Assembly: GCA_030167145.1 (NCBI GenBank)
Contig: CP126532.1
Span: 4,675,189 to 4,739,188, forward strand
Direction: 5' to 3'
Length of the DNA stretch: 64,000 nt
Origin: Ktedonobacterales bacterium
GTDB lineage: Bacteria > Chloroflexota > Ktedonobacteria > Ktedonobacterales > JADMIN01
How positions within the stretch are numbered: position 1 is the stretch's first letter; every line of letters begins with the position of its first letter. The notes beneath the pieces are model-generated. The model was not told the DNA's origin and did not search any database. It saw only the letters and a list, made by a program, of their open reading frames with translations. Positions 9,991 through 24,321 of this stretch are shown piece by piece. A program made the translations under genes and the position numbers.

Positions 9991-11154
9991 TCAGTTCACC
10001 GCCGTAGCCACTGCCACGGCTCCCTGACGGGCCTGCCCGGCCCGGAGAATGTTTCTGGCCGCGTTCTCGTCGCGGTCCAGCACCAGCCCACACTGCGGAC
10101 AGATATGCGTGCGGACCGACAGGCTCTTTTCGATCCGTTCCGGGCAGTGCGTACCATCGGCCAACACCCCACTACAGTTTTGGCTGGTGTAGGCGGGTTC
10201 TATCGCAATCACCTGTTTACCGGCGCATGCTGCCTTGTACTCAAGTGTGGTACGAAATTGTGCCCAGCCCGCATCACTGATGCTCTTGGCGAGGCGATGA
10301 TTCCGTACCAGATTGCGGACCCGCAACTCTTCGAGATAGATCACATCATACTGGCGCACCAGCGCCAGCGCCGTCTTGTGATGGAAATCGCGCCGCTGGC
10401 GCTGCACCTTCTGATGCTTGCGCGCCAGCAACTTCACCGCCTTCTTGCGACGGTGGCTACCCTTCTTGCGGCGGGAGACACGGCGTTGAGCTTTCTTGAG
10501 ATCGCGTTCGGCTTTGCGGTAGTGGCGAGGGTTTTCCACAAACACTCCGTCTGCCGTCATAAGGAAGACGTTCAGCCCCACATCAATGCCGGTTTCCTTG
10601 CCGGTGAATGGCAACGGCTGGACCGGTGCCTCGGCGCACGAGAAACAGGCATACCAACCACCCGCTTCTTTGGAAACTGTGACGGTCTTGGGCATGCCAT
10701 GAAGTGGACGATGTACCCGGATGGGAATGCGGCCGATCTTCGACAGGCTTAGTAGGCTGCCATCAAGCACCGCGCCGTTGCCATACTGCGGGTAGGTGAA
10801 GGAGTGGTAGCGATTCTCTCCCTGGAAGCGCGGATAGCCCGGTGTCTCGCCGTGCTGCACCCGCCGGAAGAAGGCGGCAAACGTTTTGTCCAGCCGACGT
10901 AGCGCATCCTGCAACACCTGCGCGTTGACCTCAGTGTAGTCGGGACAAGCGGTTTTTAGGTCCGGCAACTCCGTCGCCTGTTGGTAGTACGTGGCGCTCT
11001 TGCCTTGGCCACGCTGCCACCACGTCTTGCGTTGTTCTAAGGCGATGTTGTAGAGCGTGCGGCACCGCGATAGGACTGTCTCCAGCGCCTGTGCTTGTGC
11101 TGGTGTGGGCATCAGTTGGTACTTGAACGTCTTGCGCACGCTCGTCACGGTCAC
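9991..11154 (-). CDS. tnpB: TnpB (OrfB_IS605) RNA-guided endonuclease
   Basis: N-terminus KTFKYQLMPTPAQAQALE. RuvC-like acidic residues in TGIDVGLN, VIYLEEL and DRDENAARNI. A Cys-rich zinc-ribbon (CSG..HCP...CPQCG) is present. The GTG start overlaps the upstream stop (GTGA). Confidence 0.9.
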   Translation of the reverse strand: MTVTSVRKTFKYQLMPTPAQAQALETVLSRCRTLYNIALEQRKTWWQRGQGKSATYYQQATELPDLKTACPDYTEVNAQVLQDALRRLDKTFAAFFRRVQHGETPGYPRFQGENRYHSFTYPQYGNGAVLDGSLLSLSKIGRIPIRVHRPLHGMPKTVTVSKEAGGWYACFSCAEAPVQPLPFTGKETGIDVGLNVFLMTADGVFVENPRHYRKAERDLKKAQRRVSRRKKGSHRRKKAVKLLARKHQKVQRQRRDFHHKTALALVRQYDVIYLEELRVRNLVRNHRLAKSISDAGWAQFRTTLEYKAACAGKQVIAIEPAYTSQNCSGVLADGTHCPERIEKSLSVRTHICPQCGLVLDRDENAARNILRAGQARQGAVAVATAVN

Positions 11155-11333
11155 GGCTCTATCGCTCGCTTCTCTCCCGCCTGTTTTTGCTGGCGGGCAA
11201 TGTACTCACGGATGGCTCGAACCAATTCTCCGTTTAGCGAACGGTCATTCTCGCGGGCCAAGCGTTTCATCATGTTGGCAATATCAGCCGAAATGCGCAG
11301 GGTGATTTTGACGTCTTCATACTTCTTGTCCAT
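11151..11333 (-). CDS. Ribbon-helix-helix (Arc/CopG/MetJ-type) DNA-binding protein
   Basis: The 60-aa sequence has a beta-strand-like KITLRISADI followed by two helices (ANMMKRLARENDRSLNGELVRAIREYI). Its stop overlaps the tnpB start. Confidence 0.75.
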   Translation of the reverse strand: MDKKYEDVKITLRISADIANMMKRLARENDRSLNGELVRAIREYIARQQKQAGEKRAIEP

Positions 11334-11339
11334 GACGGT

Positions 11340-18868: not shown

Positions 18869-18992
18869 ATGTACCTGTGTAGCCTATCCGTCCCGTCACT
18901 TTACCAATTCGGACAGATGTTCGTAGAATGGCGTGATATGTGCGCGCGTGAGTGCGGTTCAGGCGGGTGATGAGGGTGACTCAGGAGGGCGT

Positions 18993-19955
18993 ATGGCGGC
19001 AAGCACCGACAGCGCAACACGCCACAACCTCACCAACGCCACCACCGAAGACCTGGCCGCCGATCTCACACCGTCCCCACCGCCATATACGGTTCACTTG
19101 CCCGGCTTCGACGGCCCAATGGATCTACTGCTGCACCTGATCGAGCGCAATCAACTCGAAATCACCGCCGTCTCACTCGTCGCCGTCACCGACCAGTTCG
19201 TGCAATACATTCGCCGCTGGGATGAACCGCCGATGCCGCGTCTGGCCGAGTTCATCGTCATGGCCGCGCGGCTGCTGCTGATCAAGTCGCGTAGTTTGCT
19301 GCCGCGCCAACGCAGCCAGGATGACGCTGACGCCGAAACCGATCCACTCGACGATGCCGAGCAACTGCGCCTGCATCTGCTCGAATACAAGATGGCGCGC
19401 GAGATTGCCCGTGCCCTGCGCGCCCGTGAGATCGCCGGGCTGCAATCCTTTGCGCGCCCCAGCCGCCTCGTAGATCCCGACGCTATCGTTGCCTGGGCGC
19501 CGCCGCAACTCGTTGGCCTGAATGTCCAGGCGCTTTCGCTGGTCTTCCGCCGCGTGCTCACCGAAAAGCGCCTCAGTGAGCCGGAGGAATTACCGCCGCC
19601 GCTAGTGACGGTGGCGCAGAAGATGACCGAAGTCGAGGCGATTCTGCGCGAGCAAGGCCGCGCCGCGCTGGAGGATGTGCTGCGCTCAGCCGATTCGCGT
19701 TTCGCCGTGGTCGTCACCTTTCTGGCCGTATTGGAGATGTGGCATCAGGCGCGGCTCAACGTCGTGCAGGAGACGCTCTTCGGGCCAATCGAAATCCTGC
19801 CTGGCCCGCGCTTCGGCGAGAAGACCATCACCTCATTCGAGGTGCCCCCACCCGAAGAGGTCACCCAACCAGAGCCAGAGCCAATCCGCACCACACCACG
19901 CGCCAGACGCAAACGCGCGAGAAGCGACAGCCCTACCCTCCCCGGCTTCGAATAG
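18993..19955 (+). CDS. scpA: Segregation and condensation protein A
   Basis: LPGFDGPMDLLLHLIERNQLEITAVSLVAVTDQFVQYI is the canonical ScpA N-terminus. The ATG follows AGGAGG. Confidence 0.9.
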   Translation: MAASTDSATRHNLTNATTEDLAADLTPSPPPYTVHLPGFDGPMDLLLHLIERNQLEITAVSLVAVTDQFVQYIRRWDEPPMPRLAEFIVMAARLLLIKSRSLLPRQRSQDDADAETDPLDDAEQLRLHLLEYKMAREIARALRAREIAGLQSFARPSRLVDPDAIVAWAPPQLVGLNVQALSLVFRRVLTEKRLSEPEELPPPLVTVAQKMTEVEAILREQGRAALEDVLRSADSRFAVVVTFLAVLEMWHQARLNVVQETLFGPIEILPGPRFGEKTITSFEVPPPEEVTQPEPEPIRTTPRARRKRARSDSPTLPGFE

Positions 19956-19976
19956 CGTCGGTGTTGGCGGTACGAT

Positions 19977-20390
19977 TCACACCTGGCGGGCGATGCGCGA
20001 GAGTGGATGGCCTTTGGCGCGCAGTTCCAGCCGGTTGAACCAGCCGAAGGCGCTCTGCGAAACCGTATAGCCCTGTTCCGCCAGGGCGCGCTCGATGTCG
20101 TCGAGGATGCGCTTGGCCGTAGCGGGTGTGGATAGCTCAACGAAGAGATGCGCGAATGAATGCAGCACCACCGTTCGCTCGCCCATTTGCCGCGCGACCT
20201 CCACAATCGCCGCCGCCGCCCGTTCCGCTACGGCTTTCGGCTCTGGTTCGTCAGCCTTCTCACACGCCGCGAAGACCACCAGCGCATCCTCCACCCGCAC
20301 CGGGCGCGGCTCCGCGTCGGCGACCTTCGAGCGCCCGCGCTCCGTCGGCTCCGCCACGAACCCATCCACGTGCCAGATCAGTAGGCGCAT
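19977..20390 (-). CDS. Free-standing homologue of the archaeal threonyl-tRNA synthetase editing domain (tRNA-Thr_ED, DTD-like fold)
   Basis: It aligns by eye over its whole length with the Pyrococcus ThrRS N-terminal editing domain as I recall it: MRLLIWHVDGF vs MRVLLIHSDY, SFAHL vs PFAHL, FGWFNRLELRAKGHPLSRIARQV vs [28 protein letters not shown] SD before the ATG at 20390. Confidence 0.75.
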   Translation of the reverse strand: MRLLIWHVDGFVAEPTERGRSKVADAEPRPVRVEDALVVFAACEKADEPEPKAVAERAAAAIVEVARQMGERTVVLHSFAHLFVELSTPATAKRILDDIERALAEQGYTVSQSAFGWFNRLELRAKGHPLSRIARQV

Positions 20391-20485
20391 CGTATGCTTC
20401 TCCTGGATTTCACGCAAAAGCGATAGTTCATTTCACCTTTATCGAGACTCGTCAAATCTCAGTGGCGCTTTCACTTGATACCATT

Positions 20486-20920
20486 TCAAGACATAGGTGG
20501 CGCAAAACGACTCTGGTGTAGTAACTCTAATCGTAATGCCATCCACTCCGTATCGTTGAATTCGAGGAACATTGCTGTCGTCCGTCCAATTGCTGTTAGT
20601 GGCTCGATGAATGCGCCATCTGGACCTCTCAGACGGAAGTGTTCGCCCCATTTGTCTACGCGGGGATTGAATAGGCGTGTGATGTTTCCGGTCTGTGGGT
20701 CAATTGATGTGAGATCGGAACCTTTCAGGCGATTGCAGCGGAAACAGGCATAGGCAAGATTCTCGCGTTCTGTCTTGCCTTGGTGCCGCTCGGCAATGAT
20801 ATGGTCAACCTCATGCGAGACAAGTGTCGCGTCATCAGGCATTCCACAATACTCGCAGCGATTCCCCGCACGCGCGATGACTTCGCGACGAAGCGCCACC
20901 GGTATGTGTGTCTCGCTCAT
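20486..20920 (-). CDS. HNH endonuclease
   Basis: CEYCG...SHEVDHIIAERHQGKTERENLAYACFRCNRLKG (Cys4 plus the H-N-H core). Visibly lower GC than the flanks. Confidence 0.85.
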   Translation of the reverse strand: MSETHIPVALRREVIARAGNRCEYCGMPDDATLVSHEVDHIIAERHQGKTERENLAYACFRCNRLKGSDLTSIDPQTGNITRLFNPRVDKWGEHFRLRGPDGAFIEPLTAIGRTTAMFLEFNDTEWMALRLELLHQSRFAPPMS

Positions 20921-21195
20921 GCTCCCGACACTGTAGATGATGCAGTGGGATACTCGTTCGAGACCTGCGCATGCGCTCTAATCAACGATATGACGTCGTT
21001 GAGCACCATGATTTTGTCAAGCTCACGAGCTTCCTCGCGCGTTAATGTACCCGCCCGATTCTTGTCAAGTAACTCGCGAATATGGTCCTGAGATGCTTCT
21101 GAGAGGCGGAACGCGGCGATTTCTTCGCGTGACGGCCCGCATGCGAAGAAAGCAACAACTTCCTCGACTGGATTCTTCAGTGATGAGCCATTCAT
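20917..21195 (-). CDS. Small helical protein coupled to the HNH endonuclease (possible antitoxin/immunity or specificity partner)
   Basis: 92 aa. GGAGGA SD before the ATG at 21195. The stop overlaps the HNH start (ATGA). It contains a charged helical segment, SQDHIRELLDKNRAGTLTREEARELDKIMVLNDVISLIRA. Confidence 0.6.
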   Translation of the reverse strand: MNGSSLKNPVEEVVAFFACGPSREEIAAFRLSEASQDHIRELLDKNRAGTLTREEARELDKIMVLNDVISLIRAHAQVSNEYPTASSTVSGA

Positions 21196-21488
21196 TAATG
21201 TCCTCCGTGATGAGGTTGCAATAGCATACGCCAACAAGATTGCGCGTATCATGTTTAAGTATAGCATGCGCTTCCCTCCTGCCTCTGGGCGTATGGCTGG
21301 TTCGGTTAAAGTCGTGACGGCGACAGGGAAATGATGACACCTATCCCCTGCTATGCAAACGTCGCTAAAGTGGTATGCGCCTGGATTGCGTTCCGCGCGC
21401 TCCGGCGTGTACACTTTGTGTAACGGTCGCGTCGCGAAACAATCTGGGAGCCTGGCGAGGGAAAGCCCTTCGAGGCGGGAGGCGGACC

Positions 21489-21953
21489 ATGGCGGCGCAG
21501 GTCATCTCCGCGCGGCATAGTATCATCCTGCCGTATCGGAAGGCCGATGCCCTGGCGGTGATTCAACGTATCGAGAGTGTCGAGAAGATCGAGGGTGCTG
21601 CTGTCCGGGTGACGGCGCACCATGAGAAGGCGCGCTACGGCACGCATGATGTGGGTGGGAGATTTGCGGGCATCCCCTGGCGCAGCCGCTACTGGCACGA
21701 GCGAGACGGCGACGGCTTTCGCGGCGAGCAGATGCATGCGCCGCCCCTCGGTAAGCGGATCTCTGGTGGATTCCAGGTCGAGGCTATCGGCAAGCACGCT
21801 TGCAAGGTGAGCTACTCCGAAGAATACCTGTTGCCGCGCTGGCTCGTGCCCTTCAGGCCCGCTATCGAAGGCTATCTGAATTGGAGCGTGATAAAGGAAC
21901 TGCGCGACCTGCGCGCACTGATCGCTGGACGCACAGCTCCCTCGCCACGCTAG
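21489..21953 (+). CDS. Hypothetical protein, possibly SRPBCC/START-like
   Basis: About 154 aa with a beta-rich pattern and a C-terminal helix. The assignment is a weak by-eye impression only. Confidence 0.4.
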   Translation: MAAQVISARHSIILPYRKADALAVIQRIESVEKIEGAAVRVTAHHEKARYGTHDVGGRFAGIPWRSRYWHERDGDGFRGEQMHAPPLGKRISGGFQVEAIGKHACKVSYSEEYLLPRWLVPFRPAIEGYLNWSVIKELRDLRALIAGRTAPSPR

Positions 21954-21954
21954 G

Positions 21955-24321
21955 CTACGCGCTCTGCTTCGGTGGCAGAGGACGTCCGGGCAGCCACCAG
22001 TTCCAGCGGCCCAGCAGCCGCATCGTCGCGGGCACCAGCAGTGTGCGGATGATCGTCGCATCTACCAGCACCGCTACGGTCATGCCCAGCCCCATCTCCT
22101 GCGTGATGACAATGCTGGTGAAGGTGAATGCGCCGGTCACAATGACGAAGAGCAGCGCCGCGTTGGTAATCACGCCGCCGGTCTTCTCCAATCCCCGCGC
22201 CACGGCATAGCGATTGTTGTGGGTGTTCAGCCATTCTTCGCGGATGCGGCTGAGCAGGAAGACTTCATAATCCATCGAGAGGCCGAACAGGATACAGAAT
22301 AGCAAGATCGGAATGGTGCTATCCAGGAAGCCATCGGACGTGAACCCCAGGATGTTGCTGAAGTGCCCCTCTTGGAAGATGAAGATCAGCGCGCCATACG
22401 CCGCCGTCACCGAGAGCACGTTCATCAACACCGCCTTGAGCGGCAGAATCACCGAGCGGAACATGATGAGCAGCAGGATGTACGTCGCCACAAGGATGAA
22501 CAGGATCGCCTTGGGGAAGTTGCCGTACAGATAGCGGTTGAAATCGAGGCTGGTGGCCTGGAAGCCACCGACCAGCACGGTCATCCCCGCAACCTGTGAC
22601 GGAGCGCCCGCGCGCAGGTCGTCAATCAGCGCTTTGCCTTCGGGGCTATCCATCTTGGTGTTCGTGCTTACGGAAATCAGCGTCGTATCGCCCGCGACGG
22701 TCGCCTTCACGAGTTGAGACAACGCCGGATTTTGTGTATAGGCGCCGCTGCTATAGAGGGCCACCAACTGCCCGTAGGTGGGCTGGGGTGTGCCTTGCCG
22801 CGTCTCTGGCAGGCGTGTTACGCTGGTTACGCTGGTGACGTGCTGTTGTGCGGCGACCCACTGCGTCAGGGCATCCACCTGCACCAGATTCGCTGGCGTC
22901 AATATCGCTGAGCCGTCGCGCGTCTGCACGGTCAGCAGTACGGGATTCTGGTTCGTTTCTGGGAACTGGGCGTTGAGGATGTCGAGTCCCTGGCGCGCTT
23001 CGGTTGTTTTGGGCAGCGACGAGGCGTTGGGTGTGCCAATGTTCAGCGAGAAGATGGGCCAGCCCAGCGCCGCCAGCACCACACAGACCAGCACCAGCAC
23101 CAGCACCGGCCGCCGCATGACGCCGAAGGCCCACTTCTGCCAGAAGCCGCCACGTGTCGTGCCCGTGTTTGCCGGTTTGGGCATGGTGAGGCGGCCCAGC
23201 ACGGGTAGTCGCAGCGTGTTTATGCGATGGCCGAGAATCGAGAGCAGGGCAGGCAGCAGGGTCAGCGCGGCGCTGACCGCGGCGACGACGACGATAGCGC
23301 CACCGATGCCGAACGAGGTCATGAACGGCAGACCGATGAGCAGCAGACCGCAGAAGCCAATCATTACTGTCATGCCGCTGAAGAGAATCGCTTCTCCGGC
23401 GGTGGCGACGGTCCAGCCGATGGCGTCGCGGACAGTGCGCCCGGCGGCCAGTTCATCGCGGAAGCGCCGGACCATGAAGAGGCTGTAATCTATTGAGATG
23501 CCCAGCCCGACAATGGTGGCGACATTCGAGACGAAGGTGCTCATCTCGGTGTGCAGCGCGATGGGATAGACCAGCGCCAGCGCCACCGGCACCGCCACAA
23601 GCGCCAGCAGCAGCGGCATCACAGCCGCGACCAGCGTGCCGAAAACGACCAGCAACACCAGCAGCGCAATCGGCATAGCAGTGATTTCGGCGCGTTTGGT
23701 ATCGCTTTCGGTGATCTTGTTGAAGGTCTCGTAGACGGCAGGGTTACCGGTAATATAGGCGCGCGCTGGCCCATCAGCCACACTGGCGTTGACCTGCGAG
23801 CGCAGATCATCGAGGTGATGTTCTACCCAATCAGAATTGGTATTGAAGTTCACGTTGACGTAGGTCGTGCGCCCATCCTGGCCTACGCCCGCTGGCTGTG
23901 CGCTGGTGACGTGTGGGAAGCTGGTGATACGGCCGACGAAGTTCTGGACTTCGGCCTGATAGGCGGGATCGGAGACGGGGGTAGCGGTAGATTGGAAGAC
24001 GACGAGCACCTGGCTTGGCGGCTGGTGAAACTTGTCCGAAAGGATGGTCGAGACGCGCGTCGCATCGCTGCCCTGAAAAGTGTAGCCACCGCCGGTGAGC
24101 AGTGACGGCACTTTCGCGGCGAAGGGCAGGCTCATGGCTACGCCTATCACCCACAGCGCCAGCACGATCCAGCGCGCCTTGTAAATGAAACGGCCATAGG
24201 CAAAGCCAATGCGATACAGGCCGCGCGGCTCGTGGCGCCCCTCGTTGGCAGCGGATTCAGCGCCCGGTGGCGAACTACTGCCGCTCGCTATTTCGTCGTC
24301 GGTGCGATCTCTCAATTGCAC
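21955..24321 (-). CDS. MMPL-family (RND superfamily) membrane transporter
   Basis: 788 aa with two repeats of TM bundle plus periplasmic domain. Typical MMPL sequences are present (GISIDYSLFMVRRFRDEL, GLSMDYEVFLLSRIREE). Confidence 0.9.
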   Translation of the reverse strand: MQLRDRTDDEIASGSSSPPGAESAANEGRHEPRGLYRIGFAYGRFIYKARWIVLALWVIGVAMSLPFAAKVPSLLTGGGYTFQGSDATRVSTILSDKFHQPPSQVLVVFQSTATPVSDPAYQAEVQNFVGRITSFPHVTSAQPAGVGQDGRTTYVNVNFNTNSDWVEHHLDDLRSQVNASVADGPARAYITGNPAVYETFNKITESDTKRAEITAMPIALLVLLVVFGTLVAAVMPLLLALVAVPVALALVYPIALHTEMSTFVSNVATIVGLGISIDYSLFMVRRFRDELAAGRTVRDAIGWTVATAGEAILFSGMTVMIGFCGLLLIGLPFMTSFGIGGAIVVVAAVSAALTLLPALLSILGHRINTLRLPVLGRLTMPKPANTGTTRGGFWQKWAFGVMRRPVLVLVLVCVVLAALGWPIFSLNIGTPNASSLPKTTEARQGLDILNAQFPETNQNPVLLTVQTRDGSAILTPANLVQVDALTQWVAAQQHVTSVTSVTRLPETRQGTPQPTYGQLVALYSSGAYTQNPALSQLVKATVAGDTTLISVSTNTKMDSPEGKALIDDLRAGAPSQVAGMTVLVGGFQATSLDFNRYLYGNFPKAILFILVATYILLLIMFRSVILPLKAVLMNVLSVTAAYGALIFIFQEGHFSNILGFTSDGFLDSTIPILLFCILFGLSMDYEVFLLSRIREEWLNTHNNRYAVARGLEKTGGVITNAALLFVIVTGAFTFTSIVITQEMGLGMTVAVLVDATIIRTLLVPATMRLLGRWNWWLPGRPLPPKQSA

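Follow-up and report, generated by a model that had tools for sequence, protein, structure and literature searches.

The stretch of DNA analysed here, called the window below, comprises 64,000 nucleotides from a Ktedonobacterales bacterium (assembly GCA_030167145.1, contig CP126532.1, positions 4,675,189 to 4,739,188). On its minus strand lies a gene for a protein of 137 amino acids (aa), the window protein, which was confirmed as a true bacterial homologue, in stand-alone form, of the editing domain (ED) found in the threonyl-tRNA synthetase (ThrRS) of archaea, with the fold of the D-aminoacyl-tRNA deacylases (DTD). The open reading frame (ORF) runs from an ATG at 20390 to a stop codon ending at 19977. 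This start was taken as the right one since the homologues begin at the same MR(L/F)L residues, and the AGGAG box in front of it lends further support. A longer version from a TTG at 20417 (146 aa) was rejected, its extra 9 residues being present in no homologue. The features of the locus are collected in Table 1, in which Pab and Mj stand for the P. abyssi and M. jannaschii proteins.

Table 1 Features at and around the ED gene (positions in the window)
Feature	Position	Strand	Basis and remarks
137-aa stand-alone tRNA-Thr_ED (ED) gene	19977..20390	minus	ORF and translation, PF08915; stop codon included
AGGAG, Shine-Dalgarno-like	20400..20404	minus	From sequence; 9 nt 5' of the ATG at 20390
HSFAHLF, residues 77-83	20142..20162	minus	Alignments; equals Pab Tyr79-Pro80-Phe81-Ala82-His83-Leu84-Ser85
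FGWFNRL, residues 115-121	20028..20048	minus	Alignments; equals Pab FGYYKAF, Mj FGWYKAF
KGHPLSR, residues 126-132	19995..20015	minus	Alignments
scpA	18933-19955	plus	PF02616
HNH endonuclease gene	20486-20920	minus	PF01844, E 1.5e-13
165-aa ORF	20917-21414	minus	Upstream of the HNH gene; 4-nt overlap with its start

The window protein matched the Pfam family PF08915 (tRNA-Thr_ED) with an E value of 2.5e-36 and 125.2 bits against a cut-off of 30.2, and its residues 1-136 were aligned to positions 1-136 of the 137 positions of the profile. It consists of this single domain without an anticodon-binding domain; no fusion to ThrRS catalytic or anticodon-binding domains was found in the 137 aa, which are flanked by unrelated genes, and the sole thrS of the host lies about 4.2 Mb away (C1:519640-521358). 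When PDB sequences were searched with phmmer, full-length matches were obtained to the ThrRS editing domains of M. jannaschii (4rrf, E 5e-24) and P. abyssi (1y2q, 3e-20) and to ThrRS-2 of A. pernix (4rr6, 2.5e-13). An AlphaFold2 model based on a 67-sequence alignment reached a predicted local distance difference test score (pLDDT) of 96.7 and a predicted template modelling score (pTM) of 0.91. With Foldseek, this model was superposed on the archaeal ThrRS N-terminal domains (NTDs) 1y2q, 4rrf and 3pd4 with template modelling (TM) scores of 0.94-0.96 and root-mean-square deviations of 1.0-1.2 Å, and on DTD structures with TM scores of 0.62-0.71 at 12-17% identity. No match of the protein to PF02580 (DTD1) or PF04414 (DTD2) was listed at E <= 1, and with 66.2 bits it did not reach the cut-off of 362 for NF011500, the Ser-tRNA(Thr) hydrolase ThrRS-ed. 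The name given to such proteins by NCBI is 'threonyl-tRNA synthetase editing domain-containing protein'. A preliminary description of this DNA had aligned the protein end to end with the archaeal ThrRS editing domain and expected a PF08915 match; the profile match and the superposition on archaeal structures agree with both.

Although the fold is shared, several residues of the pocket differ from those of the archaeal enzymes. Window protein numbers equal P. abyssi numbers minus 2 after residue 22, and P. abyssi numbering is used below for substitutions and frequencies. The family core is kept (His7, Glu44, Asp47, His81, Leu82, Phe115, Gly116, Gly127, His128, Pro129 and Leu130 of the window protein). 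In the HSFAHLF motif, His81 (Pab His83) is retained, and Tyr79, Pro80 and Ser85 are replaced by His, Ser and Phe. The FGWFNRL motif carries Phe instead of Tyr120 (Phe118 of the window protein), Asn instead of Lys121 (Asn119) and Leu instead of Phe123. In the KGHPLSR motif, His128 (Pab His130) is kept and Arg132 takes the place of Pab Glu134 (GHPLSR vs GHPLSE); the same Arg132 was aligned to the Glu of GHPLSELSR in 4rrf, the equivalent of Mj Glu135. The residue calls of the preliminary description, namely the retained FAHL histidine and GHPL motif, the change of FGYYKAF to FGWFNRL and the replacement of Lys by Asn, are the same as those in our alignments; Arg for Glu134, Phe for Ser85 and His for Tyr79 had not been mentioned in it.

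The meaning of these positions is known from work on archaeal NTDs. In Ahmad et al. 2015 (PMC4491819), seven side chains are placed within 6 Å of the scissile bond, of which Phe81, Ala82 and His83 are kept in the window protein, and Pro80, Tyr120, Lys121 and Glu134 are changed to Ser, Phe, Asn and Arg. Glu134 of P. abyssi is described there as entering the pocket from the other subunit and as forming, together with Tyr120, a network around the serine moiety. Three archaeal NTDs were severely compromised by mutation of the lysine (K121M, K116M and K122M), and Lys121 was regarded as crucial as the positioner of the catalytic water and not as a catalytic group, while Tyr120 was found to be dispensable. 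A direct catalytic role was excluded for both His83 and Lys121, and catalysis was ascribed to the 2'-OH of A76, which activates the water, and not to a protein side chain (PMC4491819). The earlier phrase 'altered putative catalytic residues' is thus too strong, and of the Tyr-Lys pair previously implicated in editing, the lysine is crucial and the tyrosine is not.

The altered residues are not confined to the window protein. A search of 1.84 billion representative proteins gave 623 relatives at E <= 1e-3. In a domain tree of 119 rows, 32 rows stood apart from 87 rows of the Lys type with a value of 99 in the Shimodaira-Hasegawa-like approximate likelihood ratio test (SH-aLRT); all of these 32 lacked the lysine, all were 131-179 aa long, and every Chloroflexota locus was among them. 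In a larger tree of 174 rows, a clade of 147 rows was recovered (SH-aLRT 98), and two of the 149 non-Lys rows (P0209 and P0232) were placed on the Lys-type side. Of 235 unique sequences, 124 had Phe-Asn-Arg at positions 120, 121 and 134, 80 had Tyr-Lys-Glu, and 31 were mixed. Among the rows without Lys121 (n=149), the conserved residues were His79 (93%), His83 (149/149), Phe85 (126/149, 85%), Phe120 (144/149, 97%), Asn121 (127/149, 85%), Leu123 (83%), His130 (143/149) and Arg134 (142/149, 95%). The Lys-type rows (n=81) carried Tyr120 and Lys121 without exception (81/81 each) and Glu134 in 80/81. Furthermore, 27 of 27 Ktedonobacterales coding sequences were intact at 137 codons, and purifying selection was evident from a median ratio of nonsynonymous to synonymous substitution rates (dN/dS) of 0.17 and a maximum of 0.37 over 338 of the 351 pairs, the other 13 being saturated. 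The altered residues are a conserved alternative signature of a distinct and widespread clade and not a private decay of one copy, because the new residues are themselves conserved and the clade is supported.

Known editing factors are already present in the host. By Pfam, the product of its single thrS has a tRNA_SAD, a class II core and an anticodon-binding domain, and the translation contains RHSAAHVMAEAV and LCRGPHV, which we take to be the HxxxH and CxxxH motifs that mark the N2 editing site in bacteria. In five of five other ED-positive genomes, the thrS model was matched from position 1. The idea that the ED protein fills in for a ThrRS that lacks editing was ruled out by the N2/SAD domain in the host ThrRS and by the thrS matches from model position 1 in these five carriers. 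The host thrS (L001:1435-3276, equal to G000:C1:519640-521358) apparently begins with the N2 editing domain, and by Pfam it lacks a TGS (N1) domain; its frame extends 109 codons further upstream without a family match.

Similarly, the host has its own DTD1 as a separate gene (168 bits), and DTD1 was detected in all 25 ED-positive Chloroflexota genomes and in 375 of the 401 genomes of the whole sample. Five of the genomes in this tally carry an unpublished flag, and no ED carrier is among these five. No DTD2 was found in the host genome, the completeness of which is 91.9%. A link to the SepRS/SepCysS pathway, which Mukai et al. 2017 describe for some stand-alone domains of archaea, was rejected for the host, in which neither gene was found above the cut-off (TIGR00470 best 25 bits, cut-off 381; TIGR02539 best 41 bits, cut-off 365). 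In archaea, all five genomes with the stand-alone form contained a second PF08915 match, in a frame of 623-651 aa in four of them and of 222 aa in the fifth. The stand-alone form and the ordinary archaeal ThrRS editing domain are coexisting paralogues. Since the host has both N2 and DTD1 and archaea keep both forms, the main substrate of the window protein is probably neither Ser-tRNA(Thr) nor a D-aminoacyl-tRNA.

The discriminator base of the tRNA was also considered. In a review (PMC8762117), with reference to Novoa et al. 2015, the archaeal editing domain alone is said to select tRNAs via U73. Host tRNAs with U73 were, by aragorn, tRNA-Thr (3/3), tRNA-Gly (three genes) and tRNA-Cys (one). 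The same aragorn run called a tRNA-SeC (tca, 97 nt) and some odd candidates of 78-89 nt (Arg cct and Gly ccc at one place), which are possibly false or unusual tRNAs.

Taken together, the altered pocket and the comparisons with ThrRS, DTD and the coexisting archaeal forms make a substrate other than Ser-tRNA(Thr) the likeliest, and we give about an even chance to the reading that the window protein is a trans-acting acyl-tRNA deacylase with such a main substrate. A trans-acting deacylase with a different substrate, which the preliminary description had offered as one option, is still the reading that fits best with N2 and DTD1 in the host, the conserved signature and the coexistence in archaea. 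Acting in trans, the protein would hydrolyse the ester linkage that holds a wrong acyl group on a tRNA. Since the fold and the shared core are kept, it would be expected to bind the 3'-terminal aminoacyl-adenosine and to rely on RNA-assisted hydrolysis, with the A76 2'-OH of the tRNA and a positioned water, as in the archaeal enzymes (Ahmad et al. 2015). By the same analogy it would be a homodimer in which Arg132 reaches into the pocket of the partner, and Asn119 and/or the Arg132 of the partner subunit may take over the water positioning of Lys121. The exchange of Lys and Glu for Asn and Arg, the loss of the Tyr hydroxyl and the bulkier Phe at position 85 would change both the charge and the shape of the pocket. 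From the replacement of Glu by Arg together with the lost hydroxyl, one might guess at an acyl group that either has no free cationic alpha-amine or is negatively charged; hydroxyacyl-tRNA or N-modified aminoacyl-tRNA may serve as examples, in agreement with the aminoacyl- or hydroxyacyl-tRNA hydrolysis proposed for stand-alone homologues with the Glu changed in Text S1 of Mukai et al. 2017. Provided that the window protein retains the reported preference of the fold for U73, it would target a U73 tRNA of the host (Thr, Gly or Cys).

More tentatively, the whole Phe-Asn-Arg clade might be an unrecognised and widespread trans-editing factor, which would add another functional branch to the DTD-like fold, next to DTD1, the ThrRS NTD of archaea and the animal DTD1 paralogue ATD, these being the known forms listed by the laboratory that works on this fold (PMC4491819 and PMC10954443). 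Such a factor could clear aberrant acyl-tRNAs missed by the known editors, for example hydroxyacyl or alpha-amine-modified ones, and the changes of Glu to Arg and Lys to Asn would then represent a specificity switch.

Several points weigh against a substrate other than Ser-tRNA(Thr) or leave it without help. The groups for the per-position frequencies were split by residue 121 itself, and the non-Lys sequences were gathered with clade queries, which makes the sample a biased one; the 119-row tree gives the same split independently of residue 121. In archaeal enzymes, Tyr120Ala/Glu134Ala double mutants lost less than 2-fold in rate and kept the discrimination between Ser and Thr (PMC4491819), and changes at these two altered positions therefore need not alter specificity. 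The U73 on the host tRNA-Thr keeps Ser-tRNA(Thr) a possible substrate. The gene neighbourhood gave no hint of a substrate: when the seven window neighbours were compared with 55 related loci (blastp, E <= 1e-8), 19 of which had only about 1.5 kb per side, none recurred, and after ORF clustering in 96 further loci the biggest genuine neighbour family was present in 7/96. Finally, no biochemistry on any member was found in the literature searched, which included few of the subscription journals.

The main rival, rather unlikely in our estimate, is that the protein edits Ser-tRNA(Thr) in trans, redundantly or as a back-up, doing the same job as N2, for example where N2 is disabled. In E. coli, the N2-site cysteine is sensitive to oxidation. 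Such a role would be consistent with the fold and conserved core shared with Ser-tRNA(Thr) editing domains, with U73 on all three host tRNA-Thr genes, on which base the archaeal domain relies (PMC8762117), and with the activity and specificity kept by the archaeal double mutants described above. However, Lys121 is replaced throughout the clade, and its change to Met was severely compromising in three archaeal NTDs (PMC4491819). The coexistence of the stand-alone form with the cis ThrRS domain in five of five archaeal genomes points to a non-redundant role, and the conservation of the alternative residues at 83-97% would be unexpected if the side chains were irrelevant.

It is less likely still that the protein binds tRNA or nucleotides but is catalytically dead, that is, a pseudo-deacylase kept for another role. 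This would fit with the loss of Lys121, the mutation of which compromises archaeal NTDs, and with the lack of an operon context tied to translation. However, the pocket is fixed to new residues (Phe, Asn and Arg) and not relaxed, the two core histidines (His81 and His128 of the window protein) are almost invariant, and the dN/dS of 0.17 is low. Since the chemistry is ascribed to the 2'-OH of the tRNA (PMC4491819), loss of the lysine need not by itself mean a loss of chemistry.

A substitute for D-aminoacyl-tRNA deacylase, acting in chiral proofreading as DTD2 does in archaea, is very improbable: the DTD-like fold (TM 0.62-0.71 to DTD structures) and the binding of D-amino acids by the NTD, stated in a review (PMC10954443), would favour it, but canonical DTD1 is present in the host (168 bits) and in all ED-positive Chloroflexota genomes, and the protein itself matches neither PF02580 nor PF04414.

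The weakest rival, a recent archaeal module that arrived with the adjacent low-GC HNH islet, might be suggested by that neighbourhood, by the patchy occurrence in the phylum (25/401 genomes, 0/29 in one family of the same order) and by the different position of the gene even in a genome of the same genus, but it is not supported and has hardly any probability left, because the GC content over the ED gene (0.64-0.68) matches the flanks and not the islet (0.50-0.55), the gene lies outside that islet, the HNH neighbour occurs in 0/55 related loci, the nearest relatives, with identities of 64-81%, come from Ktedonobacterales, the protein falls within a Ktedonobacterales clade of 34 rows (SH-aLRT 96), and the gene is carried by 8/10 genomes of the host family. 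The phylogeny against archaeal ThrRS editing domains, which had been proposed together with the idea of a laterally acquired archaeal module, also gives no recent archaeal origin: the window protein belongs to the stand-alone clade (SH-aLRT 98-99) apart from the Lys-type rows, and in the 174-row tree the stand-alone copies of archaea fall among bacterial groups, as a cluster with weak support (SH-aLRT 81). Over longer times, the patchy distribution across and within phyla points to both transfers and losses.

Compared with known systems, the window protein is closest to the archaeal ThrRS NTD, with which it shares PF08915, a TM score of about 0.95, His83, His130, the FG motif and the acidic positions Glu44 and Asp47. 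It differs in being unfused, in having His, Phe, Phe, Asn, Leu and Arg for Tyr79, Ser85, Tyr120, Lys121, Phe123 and Glu134, in belonging to a separate clade, and in occurring in a bacterial host whose ThrRS has an unrelated N2 domain. Crenarchaeal ThrRS-ed/ThrRS-2 (A. pernix 4rr6; NF011500) has the same editing fold and, as the window protein would, acts in trans, whereas it carries an anticodon-binding domain and the Tyr-Lys-Glu triple and the window protein is a bare domain. DTD1 (PF02580) and its animal paralogue ATD have the same superfold and are free-standing and trans-acting, and the equivalent of Lys121 in DTD is likewise not Lys but Met (PMC4491819); the similarity of the window protein to them is distant and structural only, there is no profile match, and the host has its own DTD1.

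Stand-alone 'tRNA-Thr-ED' homologues have been noted before. According to Text S1 of Mukai et al. 2017 (mBio), they are widespread in prokaryotes and changed at the position of Mj Glu135, and the window protein resembles them as a bare domain with a changed equivalent of this residue (Arg132). The subgroup treated there in detail is different in that it is linked to SepCysS and closest to the ThrRS domain, while the host has no SepRS or SepCysS above the cut-off. The window protein is one more member of a family that was noticed and named before but not characterised. What is added here is the complete coupled signature, in which Asn for Lys is included, the structure of the clade, its coexistence with all the obvious editors, and the evidence that the gene is under selection.

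A particular danger to the fidelity of translation came to light with each of the free-standing tRNA proofreading factors (DTD, AlaX, ProX/YbaK and CtdA). In the present case, a compact and strongly conserved protein of many bacterial and archaeal lineages has the proofreading fold with the best-understood chemistry and a rebuilt pocket. Because Ser-tRNA(Thr) editing and the clearance of D-aminoacyl-tRNA are covered in the host, the substrate could expose a tRNA mis-acylation or damage that has not been considered. The value of the window locus itself is modest, as the family had been noticed before and the locus offers no contextual clue.

With regard to distribution, the nearest relatives (64-81% identity, 32 loci) were almost all from metagenome-assembled genomes (MAGs) of Ktedonobacterales or other Chloroflexota, with one MAG labelled Proteobacteria. 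PF08915 was found in 25 of the 401 Chloroflexota genomes sampled, namely in 8/10 genomes of the host family, 3/5 of a second family of the order and 0/29 of a third. Scans with two other clade members extended the range to Anaerolineae, Binatia, Desulfobacterota and other 'delta' lineages, Bacillota, Actinomycetota and Acidobacteriota, with further carriers in Armatimonadota, Nitrospinota, Nitrospirota, Tectomicrobia and Acetothermia, and candidate division KSB1 contributed one cluster member. Isolates were among the carriers (Desulfocucumis palustris NAW-5, Bacillota; Desulfothermus okinawensis JCM 13304), as were archaeal MAGs of Bathyarchaeia, Freyarchaeota, Heimdallarchaeota, Jordarchaeia, Aenigmatarchaeota and Thermoproteota. 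Some MAG labels are possibly wrong, and the breadth of the distribution rests on no single label. Pfam describes PF08915 as 'Archaea-specific editing domain of threonyl-tRNA synthetase', and the earlier statement that the domain is regarded as archaea-specific reflects this name only, as many phyla of bacteria contain the stand-alone branch, a point already made in Text S1 of Mukai et al. 2017. The preliminary description had also allowed that bacterial homologues might prove both common and already characterised; they are common, and no characterised one was found in the literature searched.

In some Ktedonobacterales, a second ED copy was observed in tandem upstream of the regular ED gene (L013:960-1484, L041:5460-5984 and L051:5553-5984), and one genome (G257) had two such pairs. 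These second copies are similar up to FGWFN and then diverge without the GHPLSR strand, and they carry the motif SFSHMF. In L041, the C-terminal end of an ORF at 10777-11334 equals the last 24 residues of an ED. The second copies could be paralogues that have been truncated, or what a rearrangement left behind.

In the window, the ED gene is convergent with scpA, 21 bp separating the two stop codons, and adjoins the HNH gene on its other side, as had been described earlier; coordinates and GC content agree. The HNH gene and the 165-aa ORF occupy a low-GC stretch (20400-21420; 0.50-0.55 vs about 0.63 around it), look like a small inserted two-gene cassette, and were absent from every related ED locus. 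Three ORFs of the low-GC stretch (20917-21414 minus, 21375-21953 plus and 21351-22061 minus) gave no Pfam match at E <= 1. A promoter and terminator scan of 19700-21600 yielded one promoter-like and one terminator-like site, both within the expectation from shuffled sequence and neither placed for the ED gene. Within 19745-20521, other frames and the plus strand contain long ORFs that overlap the ED gene (e.g. 20095-20478 and 20126-20521), and the same overlapping frames occur in relatives, with clusters of 38 and 36 loci in the 96-locus set; they are shadow ORFs of a GC-rich gene and not genes.

Among the related loci, all-against-all ORF clustering of the 55 revealed no general partner of the ED gene. 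In seven more distant Chloroflexota loci (L010, L015, L018, L019, L022, L023 and L025; families f25, f39 and f76), the ED gene directly adjoins nrdR (for example L018:1024-1488, with ATP-cone and Zn_ribbon_NrdR), and in six of the seven a gene for an Rce1-like CAAX protease comes next. This arrangement is a lineage-specific synteny without an obvious functional link. In nine Ktedonobacterales loci (L016, L032, L034, L036, L044, L046, L059, L061 and L063), a DinB_2 or mycothiol-S-transferase-like gene (PF12867) was observed a few kb from the ED gene, at varying distance and orientation.

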